Positions 557-45,821 of a stretch of 64,000 nucleotides of DNA are shown here, in pieces. Within the stretch, counting starts at the first letter, position 1. Each line of letters opens with the position of its first letter. The stretch covers positions 6,386,001 to 6,450,000 of the forward strand of contig JBHGNT010000016.1 of assembly GCA_043228905.1 (NCBI GenBank), given 5' to 3'. Below the pieces are notes generated by a model. The model ran no database searches and was not told where the DNA came from. It saw nothing but the letters and a program-made list of their open reading frames with translations. This DNA is from Azolla caroliniana (lineage: Eukaryota > Plantae > Polypodiophyta). Made by a program: the position numbers and the translations under genes.

Positions 557-3500
557 CTTATTAAATCTGCTATCGATATAATCAGCAAATTGTGTTCTGC
601 AGCAAACTTCCGTAGCCAAGGTAAGCGTGCCATTGAACCATCACGTACATCAACTATTTCAGATAGTATTCCTACTGGCGGCAATCCAGCCATGACTGCT
701 AAATCCAAAGCTGCTTCTGTATGCCCTGCCCTCTTCAGAACACCACCCTCTCTATATCTTAGAGGGAAGATGTGGCCAGGCCTTCGAAAATCATCTGGCT
801 TTGAATCAGGGGAAGAGAGCGCAAGAATTGTAGCTGCCCGATCTGAAGCTGAAACTCCTGTGGTAACCCCAAATTTTCCATCCTGGTGAATAACAATTTC
901 CAAAGTGGATATTTAGCATCCCAAACACACAGCATAAGACTAGCATACACTAATGAAAAAACACAAAGTTATTAGGTTCCGATTCACATGTAGTATACTT
1001 ACCACAGAAACTGTGAATGCAGTACTCAGAGCTTCTTCATTATCTTTGTCATTCACCATCAAAGGTAGCCTTAACCGATCTAGATCATCTCCTTTCATAG
1101 AGACACAAATTATCCCTGTACTATGTTGAGTGAGGAAGGCAAGCGCATTGGGATTGGCCATAGATCCAGCCATTATCAGATCACCCTCATTTTCTCTATC
1201 TTCATCATCAACAACAACTACAAACTGTACACAAATAAAAACATTTTTCAAAATCTACTATAAAGACCTCTCTCTCTCCCCCCCCTCCTTTTCAAAACTA
1301 GAATTTGGGCTCTTTATCTTATTGTATTATCTTCTATGAATGTTTCAACTTCTAGTTGTGTTACTAGGATTTGAGCTCTTTATCTTATTGTATTATCTCC
1401 TATTAATTATCAATAAAAGAAATACCAAAAGAGGTATCAATCTTTGGCTCTAATAAGGTATCAAATACTTTGAAAAGGGACAATCCAGCCTCTTGAGTGC
1501 GAATACAAAATTTCTACAAGGGTCATAACGAGAACAAAACTTCTCCAGTGGCGAAATAAGCAAATTTGGTGGTCCAATTGGATTTATTTTATCAGTCTCT
1601 AGAAGTTTTTTAGGTCCATTTAACTTATCAAACCTTGATAAAACCAGTTTTTTATTTTAACAAAACGCTGCATGGCCTATGGATGAATAGTTTGGATTAT
1701 CAACTTATTCCAGCACATGAAACGGATAGAAATGCACTCCTACCATTTGAATATAAGCCTTGATTTGCCCACTTTTTGCCATGACTAAGTCAAAGAGAAA
1801 TAAGAGGTATCTGTGGACACTAGATACAGAAAGAACTTGGTTCCATCGAAAAATCAGCTAAGCAACATGATGTGGCCAGGTATGAGTCTCTTCTTACATG
1901 TATCCCCAAATGGTTTCATTATTCATGCCAAGTATATATACACGGCTCACATGCCCTTTCCACAGTTTAGAGAAATGCACAAGTGATGACGATGCTATGT
2001 AGGAGCAACTTCAGAAGCTGTACCAAAATGTTAAAGCCTTCATCTTGACAGCCCTCTTACCAATCCTTCATCATCCATGTAAAAAATATAATCTCCTCTA
2101 TTGACAATATCTCCTGCTGCAGCTGGATAAATCATCATTATAGGTTGCCTACTAGGACTAAGATTGTTGCAGTTATACATCTCCTTTTTTTCACAACATT
2201 TTGGACATTGATTAAATCGTATAATAGATTCATCTCATGTGCTGGCAGTGCCTCCCGGAATGGGTAGACATTAATTTCTTTCAGTATCTCTCTAATTCTA
2301 CAATTATAACACAGATATCTTGATTGATATCTATCATAGAAAGTTAGGCGAGCCAATGACAATTAGTCTATTATTCATCGCGTTGATCACAAATAAAATG
2401 ACTCTCACAATATATCCATAACAAGTTAGGCAAGAAAAATGCAAACCAGATACTTGTAAACATGTTAATTATAAGCATTCAAAAGAAAAGAACCATAAAT
2501 AATGAACATATTTTTTATGAAGCTTATTAATCTTACATTACTTATACAGTTAGTAAATAATCTATTCGGTCCAGAATAAGAAGTCAGAGAAACATGCCTT
2601 GCCATCACGAATATCCCTCAGGGCATCTTCAATTGAAGCAAAACCAGCAGATGGGCAATCAATATCTTTCATGTCATCTTCACTAGGGAATGCAGAATCT
2701 AGTTGTAGTAAATTGGCAGTTATGCCATCAATGGGAGACTGTACTTCACTAACTGTAGCTGCAAATTCTCTGGACACACAGCTTTGGAAATTATCATAGC
2801 CAGAGTTGGAAGCATTGCTCTTGCTGCTGGCAAAAGCACCATCTCCAAATCCTGATATACAGCTTAATTGAGGATGAATACGATTCTGATTCTTCTTCGA
2901 AATTAGAAAGCTATTAGTATCCACCCTGTAAGACCAAGAAAAACTTAGTATCCATCCATGAGATTTCTCATCTAGAAATATAGAATCATAAGAAAATATG
3001 CATCTTAAAAGCAGTGTAGAAATTGGATAGCGAGAATGATAGAGAAATATGAAAGGTAGTATATGCATATCCTTATAAAGCCATCATATTTTATTTCAGA
3101 TTCTCAAAATGCGGAATACAAAACATTAACAATGGGAAAACATTACTTGATGCAATATTTCATTTGAGAAGATTTAAATTGCAAAATTTCCACTATAACT
3201 TTGAAAAGAAAAGCAATGAATGTCTACCATTTAGATATAAACCTGAAGAGGACAATGAAAATATTCAATACCCATAAAACATGATAAGTCTCTTTAACTA
3301 TGCAAATTCTTGAATCATAAAGTAGATGCAACAAAAGCATCTAATGCTAACAAACTGACCACCCTTTGCAAACAAGCACACAAGACTGTATAAGTACAAT
3401 CTGTACAACAATCAATATACAAAAACTCTTTTTGTACAAACCAATTATTCTTCATGACCAATTGTATTGCAGCAGATGCAATTAATTGCACATACTAGAA

Positions 3501-4482
3501 CATTATAGCAAATAAACTTGGAGGTAAAAAGCACAATGGCATTGTCCTCTATCATTTCAGGAAGTGTACGATTTACTCCATCAGATCTAGGAATGTTTTT
3601 TTGAGAAGAATGCTAATGATTCCATATCATTTAGAAAACCATAAACTTACCAATTAGTCCTTTCAGGTTTAGATATGTATGCATATTGTGTCGTTGTTTT
3701 ATGTTTTAAAATAATGACACAATAGGTGTGGAAGTGTGGGGTTTAAGTACTTGACATAATGACTTAGGCCATGTTTATAACTAGGAGTGGTGCTTTTTTA
3801 CATGGGCACAAAAGAAGATGAAGATGGGATACGTAAAGAAGAAAAAGCAAAAGTTAAGTATACATGAGACATCATGACAAAAATAAAGGAAGGTATATGA
3901 AGCTCCTCCCGTGTCAAAAATAGGGAACTGCTTGGTCCATATAAGTAGTGGTTGCTTAGTTCATTGGCTGTTTTCTGTGTTCAAGGTGTCTTTGGACCCA
4001 TTTTGTTGTAAACCAATTGTCTTATGGGCCAATTTTGGTCTTAGAAGACATTAATATTTCTTTCTTTCTTTCTCGATAAGGCGAATCTAGAAAATTTTAT
4101 TTCCCTCACATCGGAGCTGTATTGGGGGGAGATTGAAACTCTGCAAAGTTTGGCAGCTGTTAAAGAAGAAATCTCGGTTTTTTGGCGGTTCCTAGGTCAA
4201 TTGGTGTTGGAATCACTGCCCACGGCGACCCCTATACTCTCCTCACCAGTCTTTCATCACATATATGTACACACATTGCAAAATTTGGCTCACTTTGAGA
4301 AAAAAACAAAAGGATATCAAATTCCCATGCTCTGAAATGGAGAAATGAGAATAGAAAACATGTAGGGAGAAAAGGAAGAAGCAAAAAAAGGAGGACCTTA
4401 CACACCTGAATCTGATGATGGTGGGAGATGGTATTGGTGCCGAGCACAGGGCTGCTGTGAAATGAGACAGAACCGAATCCAT
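557..4482 (-). CDS. RIBA: Plastid bifunctional riboflavin biosynthesis protein RIBA (DHBP synthase domain visible; 3' exons lie left of the window). Exons 4406-4482, 2598-2925, 1003-1224, 557-882
   Basis: Spliced translation gives a Ser/Pro-rich transit-peptide-like start (MDSVLSHF...), then [16 protein letters not shown]|[19 protein letters not shown]...TAFTVSV|D...[13 protein letters not shown]...RRPGHIFPL...[16 protein letters not shown], the DHBP synthase motifs. Exon phases are compatible; intron 2 uses a GC donor. Confidence 0.92.
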
Positions 4483-4540
4483 CAAGAATTAAAACCCCTC
4501 TTCTCTCTTTTCTCTGCTCTTCTCTTCTCTTCTCTTTTCT

Positions 4541-4543
<3 letters not shown>

Positions 4544-4590
<47 letters not shown>
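4544..4590. repeat. (CT)n/(GA)n microsatellite in the RIBA 5' region
   Basis: Uninterrupted CT run; it produces the spurious ERERER ORFs. Confidence 0.95.
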
Positions 4591-4593
<3 letters not shown>

Positions 4594-4813
4594 CTTTTCT
4601 CTGATCTCTGCTCTGTTCTGATCTGACAATGGCTCTGGCTCTTTGAATGTGGCGTGTGTGCGTTTTGGGGGCGGCTAATACGAAAGAGAGAATACAAAAT
4701 ACAGAGAAGACCCCCAAAAGAAGAAGAAGAAGAAAAAGAAGACAATATAAATCAGAAGAGAAGGCCAATTCAAAAAGCACCTATGCTTTATTATACTGTA
4801 TACATACTATACA

Positions 4814-36700: not shown

Positions 36701-37805
36701 GAGCTTGCTAGATGAGGAGGCACGTCGGAAAGATAAGGATACGAGCTCTGATGCCAAAGCGCTCCTTGCCGAATCGGAATGCGGAAGACAAAGAAACCGT
36801 AGTCCCCAGAACCGGGAAAAGTCGGGGACACGGTCAAAGTCAAGGGGGAGGCCTACTTGCTTCTATTGTGGCAAGCCGAGACACTTCCAGAAGAACTGTC
36901 GACATTTCCGGAAAGACAAGGAAACCGACGGTACCGATTCGAAGCGGACACCGGACCGAAACGGTAAAGACCGGAGGGGGCCGGACCGGAAGGGAACAAC
37001 GGCAATCGCGGCAAGTGAAGAAGAGTTGATGCTCATCACCGAGGAGAGTGAGCTAAACCTTGCCGGCGACGAGATGACCTGGGTGGTCGACTCCGGAGTG
37101 TCGTTCCACCTTACCCCGGACCGGAAATGCTTCTCATCCTACTCAACCAGTGATCACGGATGTGTCCGGATGGGGAATGAAGGTACATGCCGAATTGTCG
37201 GCATAGGAGACGTGTGGCTGTCAACACCAACTGGATGCAAGATGCTATTGAAGGATGTCCGACACGTTCCGGAGGTTCGACTGAACCTGATATCAGCCGG
37301 TCGGCTAGATGATGAAGGATACACGGGTAGCATCCGGAACGGTGTTATGAAGTTTTGCAAAGGGAGCCTGATTGTGGCTCGGGCCCGGAAGGTCAACACC
37401 CTGTACCTGATGAATGCCCGGTTATGTCTGGAGGAAGTGAACGTAGCATCCGACACTGTCGGTGAGCTCCGGTAAACAAAACCGGACCTCCTTCCGATCG
37501 AGGCCACCGATGAGACGTAATGCACCACTGGAGTTGGTGCATACTGATGTGTGTCAAGTGGACACGAAGTCACATGCAGGATCGCAGTACTTCGTGACGT
37601 TCATAGATGACCACAACCGGAAGCTGTGGGCCACACCGTTGAAGACGAAGGATCGGGTGCTATCCGTCTTCAAAGAGCTCCACGCGAGAGTGGAAAGAGA
37701 AACCGGCCGGAAGTTGAAGGTGGTTCGAGCAAATAATGGAGGTGAATACCGGGGGCAGTTCGAGGAGTACTGTCGCTCGAAGGGAATCCGGCTCGAATTT
37801 ACCGT
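36701..37805 (+). pseudogene. Copia 2 gag C-terminus, protease and integrase start
   Basis: CFYCGKPRHFQKNC, WVVDSG, LELVHTDVC, FVTFIDD; deletion of the GAG-pre-integrase region near 37472. Confidence 0.9.
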
Positions 37806-38485
37806 TGTTGTGAAGATTTTCGTCCATAGGCGGAAAACCGAGCGAAGTAAGCAAACCCGCGATGTGCAACGTTGCACATCAAGATGTTGTATTTCTATTT
37901 GTCGATAGTGATAAGTGTGGTGCTAGAAATGCACCTTAGGATTTGTAAAGTGTAAAGGTGATGTGCTTTTCGCGCACATCCACGTGAGAGAGAGAGATAG
38001 GTACATAGTAGTTCGTGTAGAGGTGGGAGTTAAGACCCATCCTTCCCTCCTCCCCTAAAATCAAGGGAAATATCCCCATTGATTGAAAGGGGATATTTTG
38101 TAGCACCCTTTTTGAAAACGGTCTTCTCTCCTTGTGCTATAAAAGGAGAGGAAGAGCACCATTGTGGGGGTTGCCTTATTTTGGAGTGTGAGTGAGGTAT
38201 ACCATTTCGTCTAGGGTTCCTTAGTTAGGGTTTCTTTTCTTCTTCGTCGGATTAGGGTTTCGGGTTTATCATAGTCGTTCGGTGCGGCCTACGTGGCCGC
38301 CATTTTGTAATCGGTTTTTGGTTCTAATATATCTTGTTGAGCATTTGGCCTCCATCTTCCTCTTGTTCATTCTTTCTCTTCTTGTGCTAAGCTCCATTCC
38401 GAAGTCCTATCCCTTCTCCCCTTCTCCTTAGTCCAAGACCCCCGTGGTTCCGCCCTTCTCCACGCACGCGCGTAACAACGCGACA
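37806..38485 (+). repeat. 5' LTR of the gag-only element
   Basis: tgttgtgaag...acgcgaca; TATAAAAG at ~38138. Confidence 0.95.
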
Positions 38486-38489
38486 TCTT

Positions 38490-38507
38490 TGGTGAACCCG
38501 ACGTGAA
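38490..38507 (+). promoter_or_regulatory. Primer binding site, tRNA-Trp
   Basis: TGGTGAACCCGACGTGAA, the 18-nt complement of the plant cytosolic tRNA-Trp 3' end TTCACGTCGGGTTCACCA (from memory). Confidence 0.85.
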
Positions 38508-38527
38508 GGGCGGCAAGGGAGAAAGAG

Positions 38528-41500
38528 ATGGAAGAAGGCTTCGACTTCGAGGAGATGATGACAAAGATCTTGATGGACGCCGGACGGAAGAGGGCGAGGC
38601 GAGAGGCGGCTCAACAAGCGGTCGAAAGGGTGGTCCGTCTAGTCGGCCGGTTCGATGGGAAGGAGGTCCCAAAATTTTTGAGAGCCTACGATGCGGAAAT
38701 GACGAGGATGGGCGTGGACGAAGCGACGAGGCTAGAGTTCTTTCGTCGAGCGGCGGCCGCATCAAAGCACGAGGAGGTCAAGGAGCTCCAAGAAGCTCAC
38801 GAATCGTGGGAGTCCTTTGAAGGGGCTCTAATGGAGGCATACGGGTGCGCGGAATCGGAGGTAAGAGGTCAGCGAGAGTTCGATCGGTGGGTGGCGTCGG
38901 CGAGGCGCCATCGGAGCGCAATGGAGGCATTCCGAGAGTTCGAGCGTCGTTTCTCTCAACTCTCGGAGTGGGAACGAAGATCGGTGGGGGCGGACAAAGT
39001 CCTCCTATTTTTGGAGACGGTCCATCATGAGGAGAGGATGGACATCATGTTCGAGCTTCAAGACGATTATGGGGCGCATGGTCTCACCGAGGAGTGGCCC
39101 GAAGTGGAATGGGTGTGTCGGCAACATGAGGCGAGGCGGTCGGCCACAACACGGCCCGCGAGCGGGGGAGAAGAGAGAGCGACAACCGACTACGCCATGC
39201 CGCCGGACGAGAGCTCATCGCGAACCGGTTTGGAGGGGCCCGACCTACAAGCGCTAATACGGGAGGCGTGCGGGCTCGTAATGGCGAAAATCGAAGCCGA
39301 AGAATGGCTTATGGCGGGGTCGGGCCCGAGCGGATCGGAGGACGCGGAGGAAGGAGCTTCCTCACACATGGAGGACGGGGCCTATGCGGAGGCCGAAAGA
39401 GAATGGTACATCGGTACCACGGGAGAGGGTGCGGAGCGAGCCGCCCTCTCAACATGGGGGAAAAGAACGACCGAGGACGAGGTCGGGGACGGTGAGGCGG
39501 CGATCGCCGATTCGAGCGGACATGGCGGATTCGGGACACGGTGGCCCGAATCATCGAGTACGGAGGAGACAAGCAGAGGTACCGCAACCTTCCACGCACC
39601 GGTTCGAGAGACCACGGCGGCCGGCCCGAGCGCCCGCGAGAGACCGAGGGAGAAGAACGGTGGCGGCGGCAAGGAGGGCAACCGAGACAACGGTAAGGAG
39701 ACCGCGGAAGAGGCGGCGGCAAGCATAACCGATGCTTGCATATACGGAGGCGGGGTAGCCACGGACAACGACGTCCGAGCGGAGGTGGCTACGGACATTA
39801 CATCGACGAGCGGCGGTCCCGCGACCTTACACGCGTCATTCCTAGAGATCACGGCGGCCGGCCCGAGTGCCCGCGTAAGACCTATGGTGAAAGGCGGTGG
39901 CGGTGGCAAGGCGGGCGACCACGGCGTCAACACGAGAGAAGGTGCGGAGCAAGCGACCGTCTCATCTCGGGGAAAAAGAACGGCCATGGACGAGGCCGAT
40001 ATCTACGGAGCGATGGACGCCACTTCGAGAGTGGGCGGAAGTTTCGGGACGCGGTTGCCCGAAACGTTCTACGAGGATTTCGCGAGCATACTCGAGGCTT
40101 GCGAAATGGAGGAGGAAGACGAAACGAGCGATGGTGTCGCGACCTTCCACACACCGGCCCTAGGGGCTTCGGCGGTCGGCCCGAGTGCCGGCACGAGACC
40201 TAGAGCTACGGACGGTGGCGGCGGCAAGGCGGACAACCCAGATGAGGACGAGACCGGCGAAGAAGAGGCGGCGGCAAGCATACTCAATGCTTGCGAAACC
40301 GAAGACGGGGTAGCCACGGACGACGATGTCCGAATGGAGGTGGCTACGGACGAGAGGAGTGGTGGTGTCGCGACCTTCCACACACCGGTCCTAGAAACTC
40401 CGGCACCCGGCCCGAGAGCCGGCGAGAGGCCTAGAGTGACGGACGGTGGCGGCGGCAAGGCGGGCAACCGAAACGACGACGACATGGGAGAGGGTGCGGA
40501 GCGAGCAACCCTCTCGTCTTGCGGCGAATGGACGGCCAAGGATGAGGCCGGTGACTACAAAGCGGAGAGCGCCACTTCGAAAGTGGGCGGAAGATTCGGG
40601 GCACGGCGGCCCAAAACATCGAGCGGAGAGGAGGCGAGCGGTGGTGCCGCGACCTTCCACACACCGGCCCTAGAGGCTTCGGCGGTCGGCCCGAGTGCCG
40701 GCACGAGACCTAGAACGACGGGCGGTGGCGGTGGCAAGGCGGGCAAACAAAATGACGCGGAGAACGGCGAAGAAGAGGTGGTGGCAAGCATACTAGAGGC
40801 TTACGGAATCGAAGATGGGGGAGCTGCGGACAACGACGTCCGAACGAAAGCGGCTACGGAGACAACAAGCGGCGGTGCCGGGTCCTTACCCACACCAATC
40901 CTAGAGGCTCCAATGGCCAGCCCGAGTGCCGGCATGAGGCTTAGTGCGACGGGAGGTGACGGCGGCAAGGCGGGCAACGGAAACGAGAAGGAAGATTGGA
41001 GCGGACGGAGGCAAGACCCCTTGACACCGGGGCCGGAGACTTCGGCGGTTGTGCTCGAATGCCAACGTGAGACCGGAGAGATGGGCGGTGACCATGAGGA
41101 GGTGAGGCCCGGAGAGAGCGGATACGAAGACGAGTATGCGGGGCCCGGAATGGGCGTATACGGTGGGTCCGACGGAGAGGACCGGAGCGGAAACGAGGAG
41201 AGAGTCGGGAACCGACCCGACCGGAATACGGCACGGAAGAAAAAGAGAGTAAGGGCCGGCGAATCGGGCCCAAACCGAAGGAAGCCGGCGAGACCGATTG
41301 GCCGGTTACGGTTACGGTTACGGTTACGATGGGAGCCGGAAAGCGCGAGATGGAGGTTAACCGGGCACGACGACCATGGTTCGGGGGAAAAACGGAAACA
41401 AACGAGACCCTCCATACCCACTCTAGAGACTACGGCGGTTGCGGATCAACATGAGACCGGAGAAACGGCGGGTGGCGGCGAGGAGTCGGAGGCCGGAGCG

Positions 41501-42787
41501 TACGAGGTTACCGGAACGGATATCCGGTACGAGATGGTGGACGGGTGGGTCCAAGACGGCGAGCCCATGTCGGAACGGGCTACGGCGACAAAGGAGGAGA
41601 AGACCGACATGGAGGTCGGGTCTATGGCGGAAGAACGAGACGAGATGCATGCAATACGGCCGATGGAGGGCCAAGAGACAAGCATGCCTACGAAGGAGCC
41701 ACATCGAGCGACCGAAGATGACGGTCGGATCACGCCTTCGAGAGGCGAATACGAGGAGGAAGGCGGCGACGACAAGACCTGGCACGATGCTAGGGAAGAT
41801 TGGTGGGAAGAGGTGGCCTACGGAGAGGCTAAGACCGGCGGCCACGAAGATAAGGCCCGAGAGGGGTCCTCCGCACCGGCTATAGAGACTCCGGCGGTCG
41901 GCGCGAGTGCCGACGTGAGACCAAGAGTGGCGGACGGTGGCGGCGAGGGGACGAAGGCCACAACGGATGAAGGCACCGAGAGAGGCATACGGGAGGTCGC
42001 GGAGAACGAAGATGTATGCGCCCAAAAGAACGAACACGACATCACGAAGGATGTGTGCGGTCGAGCGGGCCAAGAGGGCCAAGAGGGTGTTCCTCCGAGC
42101 GAAACGGAGGTCGGGGAAGAAAGGTACCTTTCCGAAAAGGTACGCGAAGAGGAGCGGAATGCGAAACGTGCAATGCGGCCGCATGAGGGCCAAGCAACGA
42201 GCACGGGAACGATGGTATGCTCTACGGCGAGAGAGCACGGCAAGCAAAGGGAAGGCGAAAAATGCGTGATGGGGTCATCGAAGGACCGAAGCACGAGCAC
42301 GCATTCGGAGGACGACACCGACGTACGGGGAAAGCCTACGGAAGGCAAGCGCGGAGCGAGAAGAGTCGGCACGACGAGGTGCGCGGCACGAAAAAGGCGG
42401 ATCCGGAGGATATGCGAGGCGGACAAAGGGTCGGCAACGGCGTTCGGGAGGACCGATCGGGGAAGAAAGCGCGGGCATCGGAAACGGCGGTCCGGATGTA
42501 GACGGTGGTTCGAGGAAACACGGTGGACGTGGCGGATCGGGTGGAGGCCACGACTCGGCGAGCGTCGTCAAGTGTGGCGGATCGGATGGAGCCGACGGTT
42601 CGAGACCATTCGGCGGAGATGGTGGGCCGGAAGGCGACGGTGGTTCGTGTGGACGGGGTGGACTTGCTCGAAGTGGAAGACTAAGCCGGGCAAGCCCACG
42701 AGGTTGTCAAGGGCTCGGTTGGCCGCCTTGGCCGAAAATCTCGCGTTTTGTTCCCCTTTTGGCACATACCGGTGGATGTGCGGTTAG
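38528..42787 (+). CDS. 1419-aa ORF: Gag-capsid-like N-terminus, long acidic Gly/Ala/Thr repeat region, Arg/Trp-rich C-terminus
   Basis: Uninterrupted ORF filling the element from PBS to PPT; GRFDGKEVPKFLRAY...SWESFEGALMEAY...FREFERRF resembles retrotransposon Gag; repeats of ATFHTP..E.....GPSA..RPR...GGGGK. Confidence 0.75.
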   Translation: MEEGFDFEEMMTKILMDAGRKRARREAAQQAVERVVRLVGRFDGKEVPKFLRAYDAEMTRMGVDEATRLEFFRRAAAASKHEEVKELQEAHESWESFEGALMEAYGCAESEVRGQREFDRWVASARRHRSAMEAFREFERRFSQLSEWERRSVGADKVLLFLETVHHEERMDIMFELQDDYGAHGLTEEWPEVEWVCRQHEARRSATTRPASGGEERATTDYAMPPDESSSRTGLEGPDLQALIREACGLVMAKIEAEEWLMAGSGPSGSEDAEEGASSHMEDGAYAEAEREWYIGTTGEGAERAALSTWGKRTTEDEVGDGEAAIADSSGHGGFGTRWPESSSTEETSRGTATFHAPVRETTAAGPSARERPREKNGGGGKEGNRDNGKETAEEAAASITDACIYGGGVATDNDVRAEVATDITSTSGGPATLHASFLEITAAGPSARVRPMVKGGGGGKAGDHGVNTREGAEQATVSSRGKRTAMDEADIYGAMDATSRVGGSFGTRLPETFYEDFASILEACEMEEEDETSDGVATFHTPALGASAVGPSAGTRPRATDGGGGKADNPDEDETGEEEAAASILNACETEDGVATDDDVRMEVATDERSGGVATFHTPVLETPAPGPRAGERPRVTDGGGGKAGNRNDDDMGEGAERATLSSCGEWTAKDEAGDYKAESATSKVGGRFGARRPKTSSGEEASGGAATFHTPALEASAVGPSAGTRPRTTGGGGGKAGKQNDAENGEEEVVASILEAYGIEDGGAADNDVRTKAATETTSGGAGSLPTPILEAPMASPSAGMRLSATGGDGGKAGNGNEKEDWSGRRQDPLTPGPETSAVVLECQRETGEMGGDHEEVRPGESGYEDEYAGPGMGVYGGSDGEDRSGNEERVGNRPDRNTARKKKRVRAGESGPNRRKPARPIGRLRLRLRLRWEPESARWRLTGHDDHGSGEKRKQTRPSIPTLETTAVADQHETGETAGGGEESEAGAYEVTGTDIRYEMVDGWVQDGEPMSERATATKEEKTDMEVGSMAEERDEMHAIRPMEGQETSMPTKEPHRATEDDGRITPSRGEYEEEGGDDKTWHDAREDWWEEVAYGEAKTGGHEDKAREGSSAPAIETPAVGASADVRPRVADGGGEGTKATTDEGTERGIREVAENEDVCAQKNEHDITKDVCGRAGQEGQEGVPPSETEVGEERYLSEKVREEERNAKRAMRPHEGQATSTGTMVCSTAREHGKQREGEKCVMGSSKDRSTSTHSEDDTDVRGKPTEGKRGARRVGTTRCAARKRRIRRICEADKGSATAFGRTDRGRKRGHRKRRSGCRRWFEETRWTWRIGWRPRLGERRQVWRIGWSRRFETIRRRWWAGRRRWFVWTGWTCSKWKTKPGKPTRLSRARLAALAENLAFCSPFGTYRWMCG

Positions 42788-42798
42788 GTGGGGGCGGA

Positions 42799-43478
42799 TG
42801 TCGTGAAGATTTTCGTCCATAGGCGGAAAACCGAGCGAAGTAAGCAAACCCGCGATGTGCAACGTTGCACATCAAGATGTTGTATTTCTATTTGTCGATA
42901 GTGATAAGTGTGGTGCTAGAAATGCACCTTAGGATTTGTAAAGTGTAAAGGTGATGTGCTTTTCGCGCACATCCACGTGAGAGAGAGAGATAGGTACATA
43001 GTAGTTCGTGTAGAGGTGGGAGTTAAGACCCATCCTTCCCTCCTCCCCTAAAATCAAGGGAAATATCCCCATTGATTGAAAGGGGATATTTTGTAGCACC
43101 CTTTTTGAAAACGGTCTTCTCTCCTTGTGCTATAAAAGGAGAGGAAGAGCACCATTGTGGGGGTTGCCTTATTTTGGAGTGTGAGTGAGGTATACCATTT
43201 CGTCTAGGGTTCCTTAGTTAGGGTTTCTTTTCTTCTTCGTCGGATTAGGGTTTCGGGTTTATCATAGTCGTTCGGTGCGGCCTACGCGGCCGCCATTTTG
43301 TAATCGGTTTTTGGTTCTAATATATCTTGTTGAGCATTTGGCCTCCATCTTCCTCTTGTTCATTCTTTCTCTTCTTGTGCTAAGCTCCATTCCGAAGTCC
43401 TATCCCTTCTCCCCTTCTCCTTAGTCCAAGACCCCCGTGGTTCCGCCCTTCTCCACGCACGCGCGTAACAACGCGACA
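42799..43478 (+). repeat. 3' LTR of the gag-only element
   Basis: tgtcgtgaag...acgcgaca; near-identical to 37806-38485. Confidence 0.95.
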
Positions 43479-43482
43479 CCGT

Positions 43483-45153
43483 GTTGAAGACGTCGGAACT
43501 AAACGGGCTGGCCGAGAGGATGAATCAGACCATAATGGAGAGGGTCTGGAGTATGTTGGTGCATGCAAAACTACCCAAGAAGTTTTGGGCTGAGGCACTG
43601 TCGACGGCGACATATGTGATAAACAGATCACCCTCAGTACCCTTGGACGGAGACATGCCGCAGAGAGTATGGACCGGTAAGGAAGTGTCCTACCGGCATC
43701 TAAAGGTGTTCGGGTGTCTCGCGTATGTGCATGTAGCTAAGGACCGGAGAGGAAAGTTAGATCCAAAGACCCGGCCATGCATATTCCTCGGTTACGGCGA
43801 CGATGAGTTTGGCTACCGAGTGTGGGACCCGGTTGACAAGAAGGTATTCCGGAGTCGAGATATTATCTTCATGGAGGACAAGACGCTCGCCGACTGGGAG
43901 TCGGAGAAGAAGATAATGAACTCCGAGTCGATCGGTAAGGATGCCGAACCGGCAGAAGAAGAAGTAGAGGAAGCTGAAACCGGAACCGGCCAAGACCCCG
44001 AATCGGATTCGGATGAAGAGCAAATGGAGGAGCCGGTTACCGAAGCCCAAAGACGGAGATATCCTCTTAGAGAGAGAAGGCCCCCCCGGAGATTTCCGAA
44101 TGTAGAGCATGTGCTGCTAACCAATGAGGGGGAGCCAAAAAGCTTCGAAGAAGCGAAGGATGACACCCACAGTCGCAAATGGTTAAGTGCCATGCATGAT
44201 GAGATGGATTCCCTACATGAGAACCATACGTACAAATTGATGGAGTTGCCGAAAGGAAAGCGGGCACTCCGTAACAAATGGGTGTACAAGTTAAAACCGG
44301 GAGATGCCGGCAACCCCCCGAGATACAAAGCCAGGATCGTGGTGAAGGGGTTCCAGCAGAAGAAGGGCGTGGACTTCGACGAGATATTTGCCCCGGTAGT
44401 AAAGATGACCTCCATCCGGACGGTGCTGAGTATAGCGGCAAGCATGGACCTTGAGGTAGAGCAGCTGGACGTGAAGACGACATTCCTTCACGGTGACCTT
44501 GAAGAGGAGATCTACATGCAGCAACCGGAAGGATTCGTGGAGAAAGGGAAGGAGCACCTGGTATGCCGGTTGAAGAAGAGCCTGTACGGACTGAAGCATG
44601 CTCCCCGACAATGGTACCAGAAGTTCGACTCCTTCATGACCGATCAAGGGTACCACAAGACGCAGGCCGATCACTGCGTGTTTGTGAAGAAGTTCGAAGG
44701 AAGCGACTTCCTGATACTCCTTCTGTACGTGGACGACATGTTGATCGTCAGACGGGACCAAGCCAAAATACGGATGCTGAAGAAGGCTCTCAATCGAACC
44801 TTCGCAATGAAAGACTTGGGTCCGGCAAGACAGATGCTGGGGATGCATATCATCCGGAACCGGCCAACGAAGCAATTGTGGCTGTCACAGGAGAAATACG
44901 TGACAAAGGTGCTTCAAAGGTTCAACATGTCAGATGCGAAACCGGTCGGATCGACACTCCCGACAAACTACAGATTATCCGGTAAGCAAAGCCCGAAGAT
45001 GAAAGTAGAGAAGGCTGATATGATGAAGGTTCCATATGCCTCTGCCGTCGGGAGCTTAATGTACGCAATGGTGTGTACCCGACCGGATATAGGATACGCA
45101 GTCAAAGTGGTGAGCCGGTTTATGAGCAATCCCGGCAAGGAGCACTGGAACGC
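43483..45153 (+). pseudogene. Copia 2 integrase C-part and reverse transcriptase
   Basis: NGLAERMN, FWAEA, LKVFGC, RYKARIVVKGF, QLDVKT, LYVDDML, CTRPDI. Confidence 0.93.
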
Positions 45154-45717
45154 TGTCGTGAAGAAAACCGGCCATAGGCGGATTCGGAGAGAAAGGCGCG
45201 TGAACCGGCTCTTACACGGGTGGACGTGTAACTTGATATTTTGTACCCGATTCATAAACGGATCGGTGGGTGAAATACGAGGTGGCACGCATTTATCAGG
45301 GGATTGTGCGTATAACTGTTAGAGGGAGGGGAGGATAGGGAATAAAAGGGACTTGACAAGAGAAGAAAGATATCGCGCGTAAGGAGGAGGAAGGACGTTG
45401 CTACAAAACGGAGGCCGGAGCTGTCTCTCTGCTGCTCTCAAATTGTCGCTCTCTGCGTGTGTCAGGAGGTCGTTGCCTCTGCTTCGTGGACAGCCCGTGT
45501 GCTTCCAGCAGAGTCGCTCCCCTTACCCGCTTTTTTTTCGTTTCCTCGAGTCGGGTGACTATCGTCGGTGTGCGTGAGTAGGGTCCCCGTGTTGGGTCTG
45601 TCGCCGCTTTGTCGGTTGTAATCGTCAGAGTTTGTAATCTCTGTCATTATAATTAAGTGTTGTGTTTTGTCTCTCTCTTTCTCGCTTCTACGGGCCAGTG
45701 AATCTTTCTCTCTCTCC

Positions 45718-45759
<42 letters not shown>

Positions 45760-45821
45760 CCTCGGTCCAAGACCCCCGTGGTCCCGCCCCTTTCTACACG
45801 TACGCGCGTTACAACGCGACA
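45154..45821 (+). mobile_element. Solo LTR related to the gag-only element family; 4-bp TSD ACGC/ACAC
   Basis: Shares the termini tgtcgtgaag and gtccaagacccccgtggt..cgccc...acgcgcgt.acaacgcgaca with 42799-43478; removing it restores Copia HWNAVKWIL. Confidence 0.88.

Follow-up and report, generated by a model that had tools for sequence, protein, structure and literature searches.

A pol-less, capsid-bearing LTR satellite of Azolla caroliniana whose long reading frame is kept open while its amino acid sequence drifts

Introduction

Among described retrotransposons, the closest counterparts of the element analyzed here are the TR-GAG elements, which are bounded by LTRs, contain a primer-binding site (PBS), a polypurine tract (PPT) and one open reading frame (ORF) with a Gag domain, are flanked by a target-site duplication (TSD), lack pol, and occur in many conserved copies (PMC4350172). 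The element from the fern Azolla caroliniana shares these features but departs from the published TR-GAG description in its length (5.7 kb versus less than 4 kb), its 4-bp rather than 5-bp TSD, its ORF of 1419 amino acids as against 433 in TR-GAG1, its internal repeats, its lack of a zinc finger, its identifiable helper, and selection on its frame without amino acid constraint (PMC4350172). It works like TR-GAG, but it is not TR-GAG in the strict sense because the size and the 5-bp TSD of that class do not apply to it; Gag-bearing families above the TR-GAG size range are also known (PMC13570524). A second likeness is to the non-autonomous barley families RLG_Sabrina_A and RLG_WHAM, which retain Gag, share DNA homology with their partner RLG_BAGY2 only at the 3′-end of the LTR and the PBS while the Gags are homologous as proteins, and have relatives that have lost their coding capacity to varying degrees (PMC5738225). 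These families belong to the Athila lineage, and the barley report, so far as it describes them, mentions neither a repeat-filled ORF reaching the PPT nor a comparison of selection on frame and on sequence (PMC5738225).

The Phygy elements, a non-chromovirus Ty3/gypsy lineage defined from autonomous Physcomitrella elements (7.7–10 kb), carry a 4-bp NCGN TSD in 100% of cases and a tRNA-Trp PBS in 81%, and the TatI elements carry a tRNA-Trp PBS in 75%, a 4-bp TSD and an extra RNase H (PMC6317226). The Azolla element and its putative helper agree with Phygy in the NCGN TSD, the tRNA-Trp PBS and a helper order of RT, RNase H and integrase without a chromodomain, and differ in that the helper is 7.2 kb long and the element itself is pol-less (PMC6317226). 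The original prediction, made from the sequence alone, had treated tRNA-Trp priming as a rarity among plant elements; it is instead ordinary here, since NCGN and tRNA-Trp are marks of Phygy. A disordered Gag segment that tolerates sequence change has been described in the prion-like domain of Ty1 Gag, which is N-terminal, short, part of an autonomous element, and needed for particle assembly (PMC10372613); unlike that domain, the corresponding spacer exceeds 1000 amino acids here, and capsid lobes can be lost.

The class of the element is thus known; new and testable is the separation of the frame from the protein. A long intact transposon ORF is commonly taken to encode a conserved protein, but in this family stops have been purged and amino acids have not. 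No report of selection on the frame alone in a gag-only element was found in listings of the freely accessible literature.

Structure of the element

The element lies in a 64,000-nucleotide stretch of contig JBHGNT010000016.1 (assembly GCA_043228905.1, positions 6,386,001–6,450,000), hereafter the window, and has a total length of 5673 bp (Table 1). Its predicted architecture was recovered in full: the near-identical LTRs differ by two substitutions and have TG...CA ends, the same 4-bp duplication stands on either side, the PBS begins 4 nt past the LTR and is complementary to the tRNA-Trp(CCA) 3′-end with CCA added, and the single ORF stops 11 nt short of the 3′ LTR. Host tRNA-Trp(CCA) genes fitting the PBS gave 63 pattern matches, and ARAGORN called tRNA-Trp at 6/6 loci. 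A Pfam search of the whole ORF returned no match and a pattern search for CCHC, protease and RT motifs found none, in agreement with the prediction that pol domains and CCHC are lacking; retrovirus-like pro, pol and env genes are likewise absent from the element.

Table 1. Features of the element and its surroundings, in window coordinates
Feature	Position	Strand	Remarks
Interrupted Ty1/copia element, upstream part	37029..37801	+	Pol_BBD, rve; Pfam
5′ TSD	37802..37805	+	CCGT, NCGN type
5′ LTR	37806..38485	+	680 bp; last ~75 nt (U5) related to helper LTR end
PBS for tRNA-Trp(CCA)	38490..38507	+	18 nt; identical in helper
ORF	38528..42787	+	1419 aa; spans 20 nt after PBS to PPT
Capsid (CA) domain (predicted)	38528..39148	+	aa 1–207; lobes ~aa 33–107 and 111–207
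Low-complexity spacer	39149..42322	+	aa 208–1265; frame kept, length and sequence free
Six internal repeats	39563..41018	+	spacings 237, 318, 231, 279, 231 nt, each a multiple of 3
Seventh internal repeat, partial	at 41874
Arg/Trp-rich tail	42323..42787	+
Cis region	42757..42798	+	PPT at its end
3′ LTR	42799..43478	+	680 bp
3′ TSD	43479..43482	+	CCGT
Interrupted Ty1/copia element, downstream part	43483..45153	+	SH3, RVT_2; Pfam

Among 2000 shuffled or Markov sequences of matched composition, the longest frame was 808 amino acids and none (0/2000) reached 1419; the remaining two forward frames of the element contain 33 and 26 stops. T makes up 12–14% at each codon position of the ORF, and the third-position G+C is 67.5%. 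The spacer had been described as acidic low-complexity repeats, and its low complexity stands, but it is rich in Gly, Ala and Glu and its acidity is mild (net charge −0.095 and −0.068 per residue). The part beyond the capsid has the composition of a disordered chain by the charge-hydropathy boundary, a weak measure that flags the folded part too. That the tail is a relic of pol holds in small part: the pol-end/PPT region found also in the helper covers its last ~14 codons, for which all three reading frames are used. A pol origin was dropped for all but these last ~42 nt, as the remainder has no pol homology.

Predicted capsid fold

The capsid fold suspected at the N-terminus is borne out by an AlphaFold model (56 aligned sequences), in which residues 1–210 have a pLDDT of 92 and the structure matches are capsids. 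In a VIA structure comparison the best matches were Arc, copia and PEG10 capsids, with a Z of 11.1 to the dArc1 capsid (rmsd 7.0 over 158); taken one at a time, the lobes gave Z 9.0 (rmsd 1.9 over 69) and 8.1–8.4, with lobe rmsd of 1.9–3.1. PDB sequences searched with an HMM of the Gag alignment gave no match, and Foldseek returned nothing at E 0.001, although the nine rows that it ranked highest were all capsids, of Arc, copia and Ty3. The region is 37% identical to the helper Gag, and the capsid reading is accepted despite the moderate Z for a helical domain because this homology and the position of the domain concur. As modeled, residues 1–207 are a two-lobed capsid; it is not followed by a zinc knuckle.

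A young family of pol-less copies

A protein search of the genome, in which the best 150 of 10,366 candidates were scored, placed the capsid region at ≥94% identity in at least 66 loci and in partial form in at least four more. From 68 loci examined, L029, L080 and L097 were dropped because the stretch contained no pair of LTRs, and L010 because its flanks equal those of L006, so that the final set comprised 64 copies and the window copy. All 65 are pol-less, with 3.0–4.5 kb between the LTRs and no internal region of RT length. LTR divergence averages 0.19% and the LTR pair is identical in 27 of 62 copies, which supports the predicted status of a recently mobile pol-less satellite. An exact 4-bp TSD is present in 56/62 copies, the other six lacking an exact match, and every one of these 56 TSDs has the form NCGN. 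Recombination among copies was observed, and two young sister copies that both still read through have a 44-amino-acid deletion of the N-lobe in common. None of the runs listed as matching the element is recorded as RNA. Four of them, consisting of contigs whose RNA origin is only guessed, indicate no more than that the element is present, and the joints in them reflect differences between repeats or copies rather than clear introns.

The putative helper

The original prediction had called for a partner supplying pol, and a pol-bearing family just as young was found whose PBS, LTR ends, PPT region and preferred target match those of the satellite. The pattern of LTR end and PBS has 2015 occurrences, and an RT motif of this type was present at 7/20 of those sampled; the RT-bearing elements encode Gag, a zinc knuckle, DUF4100, protease, RT, RNase H and integrase. 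Where LTR pairs were found in the first autonomous copies (L044, L048, L051–L054, L059), they are 96–97% identical, which makes these copies older than the satellite. An RT search, with the best 150 of 16,762 candidates scored, uncovered a large family of near-identical pol-bearing elements with a pol frame of 1167 codons. Twelve copies were examined: each is 7.2 kb long with 0–2 LTR differences, has the PBS of the satellite, and is flanked by an NCGN TSD (12/12). Gag-pro and pol are their only genes, with Pfam domains in the order RVT_1, RNase H, integrase and no Pfam match to a chromodomain at E 0.01; the nearest named relatives of the RT-RNase H region are proteins of the liverwort Riccia and the fern Adiantum (~65%).

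Satellite and helper DNA are similar only at the U5 end plus PBS (78%) and in the PPT region (92%), and the cis region plus the first LTR bases of the satellite have 92–96% identity to the pol end/PPT of autonomous elements. Because the PBS, PPT, LTR-end and target signals are shared, this family would provide RT and integrase to the satellite, and it is likely its helper. The sequence evidence as a whole makes it nearly certain that the element is a pol-less, capsid-bearing LTR satellite of a likely Phygy-type Ty3/gypsy lineage, and a probable satellite-helper pair is thereby described for a Phygy-type lineage that has been little studied.

Selection on the frame

Variants were scored against the window copy using rates estimated from the data for each sequence context (680 single-copy and 331 shared variants). 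Across the 65 copies, 6 stop mutations were observed against 28.6 expected, and the two other frames match expectation (48 vs 50.1 and 48 vs 53.7). Within codons 1–1240, single-copy variants gave 5 stops vs 20.0 expected (P = 0.0001) and shared variants 1 vs 8.6 (P = 0.002), both P-values being optimistic because the copies recombine and the events are not independent. Five single-copy stops are about what post-insertion decay should yield, as estimated from LTR divergence. A stop at codon 25 common to L026 and L089 is probably recurrent rather than inherited: the change lies at a CpG, and the 5′ tree does not place the two copies as sisters.

Net indels before codon 1150 are in frame in 15/15 shared and 20/28 single-copy cases, and net shared indels after codon 1150 in 3/10. 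Frame-breaking indels at neutral rates, which would have been expected of an unselected ORF, are therefore not seen among the shared indels before codon 1150, and together with the stop depletion this establishes that the frame is kept open across copies. Among the shared indels that stay in frame, many involve a repeat unit or 6 bp and are incapable of breaking it.

The amino acid sequence behaves differently. The dN/dS of the young family is 1.04 and 1.01, and in the spacer no missense class is depleted, as against 4 stops where 23.3 were expected. Codon models gave 0.91 for the CA and 0.97 and 1.34 for the spacer in the young family, as compared with 0.22 for the CA and 0.14 for the RT in the older helper; several pairwise spacer values against the 55% subfamily described below and against L078 were saturated and were left unused. 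The same scoring of the 12 young helpers gave shared dN/dS values of 0.20, 0.12 and 0.21, a control for dN/dS and not for stops, as these copies were chosen for long open pol frames. In 47/65 copies the ORF reads through and ends no more than 30 nt short of the 3′ LTR, at three different stops and with lengths of 984–1489 amino acids; the tail is read in the Arg/Trp frame in 29 of the 47 and in another frame in 18. The notion of a giant Gag whose sequence matters is consequently not supported for the young family: dN/dS is ~1 along the ORF, the tail is out of frame in 18/47, and lineages missing some or all of a capsid lobe have multiplied. Selection is shown to oppose stops and frameshifts up to about codons 1150–1240, and not changes of amino acid, length or tail frame or the loss of a lobe.

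Related subfamilies

An older subfamily with a reduced capsid lobe was sampled through a search in which the best 40 of 1407 candidates were scored; 38 loci were examined and 29 had an LTR pair. In 28 of these 29 copies 83 amino acids of the C-lobe are missing, and the frame is ~1000 codons long. Variants present in at least three copies include 0 stops vs 4.4 expected (P = 0.013), so that the pattern of stop depletion is repeated, more weakly; the dN/dS of the subfamily is 0.98–1.11. Stops shared by pairs number 5 vs 8.6; single-copy stops (31 vs 32.7) are at the neutral level expected for older copies, by which the stop-count method is calibrated. Three copies of this subfamily have a common 19-nt frameshift leading to a stop at codon 345.

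Subfamilies at ~72% Gag identity have the same frame open, with 3 and 7 stops against 36–47. In a sister subfamily whose Gag is ~55% identical, a stop at codon 480 is found in 14/14 aligned copies, with ~1.9 kb devoid of an open frame beyond it, yet this subfamily has multiplied. Between subfamilies the dN/dS is 0.15–0.55 for the capsid and 0.31–0.34 for the tail in 2/5 pairs, and relatives at 50–60% Gag identity, P0007–P0009, also carry the tail's Trp motif.

Possible explanations of the open frame

The reading preferred here, with a probability of about 0.6, is that a pol-less satellite, likely copied by a helper, keeps its frame while its amino acids drift, likely because an RNA translated throughout escapes nonsense-mediated decay (NMD). 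The satellite RNA would be packaged in helper particles and would use the helper RT and integrase. Selection for read-through quite probably operates in cis, on the RNA being translated, since the stop depletion sits in each copy's own ancestry; a benefit in trans would be common to all copies and poor at purging stops from each. An early stop would create a 3′ UTR of kilobases, which would invite UPF1-dependent decay, and the RNA would then rarely be copied. NMD escape is favored because the tolerated changes all keep the stop near the 3′ LTR and because long 3′ UTRs trigger NMD, as reported in a flowering plant, where the effect is length-dependent (PMC1693880). Counter-evidence comes from the codon-480 subfamily, which multiplied with an early stop, from the frameshift trio and the five pair-shared stops of the lobe-less subfamily, and from the helper itself, the RNA of which lives with a long 3′ region because ~3.5 kb separate the end of its gag-pro frame from the LTR. 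The chance that NMD escape is the cause of the stop depletion is put at about even, and much the same applies to the wider proposition that ribosomes are kept running through the whole RNA by selection, which leaves the protein, capsid included, free to decay. The protein had a function, which it may retain in trans: the deep capsid dN/dS and the old Trp motif indicate that it once mattered, and the capsid, under purifying selection on deep branches, may still co-assemble although it is dispensable in cis.

It is possible, but unlikely, that the giant protein itself acts in cis, either through a capsid tethered to its own RNA by the ribosome or through RNA binding by the basic tail; the spacer would then be indifferent to sequence, the tail would replace the missing zinc knuckle, and the RNA would be drawn into helper particles. 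The intact capsid fold, the constraint on the capsid on deep branches and on the tail in two of five pairs, the Trp motif of the distant relatives, and a Ty1 Gag disordered domain that is required yet interchangeable (PMC10372613) would fit such a protein. It accords poorly with the 18/47 read-through copies that have a Gly-rich or other tail, several of them in multi-copy groups, with the loss of the C-lobe in 28/29 lobe-less copies that still keep their frame, with the N-lobe deletion common to two young copies, and with the lack of cis-preference of Ty1 proteins as reported (PMC3945221). Translation to the end could also be selected in cis independently of NMD, by keeping the RNA from siRNA bodies (SGS3/RDR6) or by bringing it to an assembly site. 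This proposal is consistent with all of the selection data and tolerates the exceptions better, and according to a review, ribosome stalling sends plant transposon RNA to siRNA bodies (PMC12786077); the third-position G+C of the ORF might be counted in its favor, but synonymous and missense changes are not depleted and so give no sign of codon selection, and the proposal is judged rather improbable.

The view that there is no selection, the frame being open through youth, descent from one intact copy and T-poverty, could appeal to the low LTR divergence, a dN/dS of ~1 and the low T at every codon position. It is largely refuted by the stop counts, since among the same single-copy and shared variants stops are missing only in the ORF frame and the same frame is open at ~72% Gag identity, and it is now very hard to credit. 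Even less credence is given to a dominant-negative role in which the protein would serve the host by poisoning helper particles: a capsid that lacks a nucleocapsid and carries so large an appendage would suit that role, but the copies are dispersed, young and LTR-bounded with no locus singled out, and satellite and helper expanded simultaneously.

Should NMD escape be the cause, it would explain long ORFs in some non-autonomous elements and caution against calling them functional genes, and the family would offer natural, near-identical RNAs with and without early stops for measuring RNA surveillance of plant retrotransposons. If selection does keep ribosomes running to the RNA end, the copies would amount to a population-scale readout of RNA surveillance on a plant transposon.

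Insertion site

The window copy is inserted in the integrase region of a Ty1/copia element, the two parts of which are listed in Table 1.

Relatives of the Satellite Element

Searching the whole host genome (G000) for the LTR end followed by the tRNA-Trp primer-binding site (PBS) returned 2015 matches. Pol was borne at 7 of 20 sampled places, and at the remainder of these 20 the element showed no RT motif of the helper-lineage type; these non-pol-bearing places represent at least three pol-less subfamilies. The 3′-end pattern of tRNA-Trp itself gave 63 matches in all, with clusters and tandem arrays in this genome at C8:17.80–17.82 Mb, C16:4.99–5.11 Mb and C5:10.11 Mb.

Other observations concern copies and relatives of the satellite, the pol-less element of the window. 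Loci L068 and L069 are chimeras (about 890–4500 in oriented coordinates), in which the capsid region is 75–85% identical to the young family and the 3′ two-thirds are 97% identical to it; each carries an ORF of about 1195 codons that is open as far as the LTR. In L050, a family member outside the 65-copy set, the capsid N-lobe (about aa 27–110) is missing by in-frame loss, and the frame of 752 codons still reaches the LTR despite this loss. L017, L082 and L128 are tandem elements with a common middle LTR, and a PBS follows their second LTR.

Coding Frames of the Satellite and Helper

Within codons 201–1240 of the satellite ORF (window 39128–42247), changes that create Asp or Glu are in excess (79 observed versus 52.2 expected), which may stem from the mutational context or from weak selection favouring acidic residues. 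In the pol-bearing helper family, a same-strand frame overlaps pol in 12 of the 12 copies examined (L151–L162), about 3665–4640 from the LTR start; it comprises 325 codons (260 in one copy) and may reflect composition and youth only.

Surrounding LTR Elements

The satellite lies among stacked, nested LTR elements that include Ty3/gypsy- and copia-like frames. The copia element that holds the satellite also carries, in its RT region, an inserted solo LTR from a related family, bordered by ACGC and ACAC. Over the final 62 nt of this solo LTR, identity to the satellite LTR end is 87%.

Coordinates of LTR features in the window
Feature	Position	Remark
Nested stack	9800–47100	
Repeat pair	11810/17059	in stack
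Repeat pair	28121/33422	in stack
Repeat pair	19966/46759	in stack
Repeat pair	20834/36235	in stack
Solo LTR	45154–45821	from a related family
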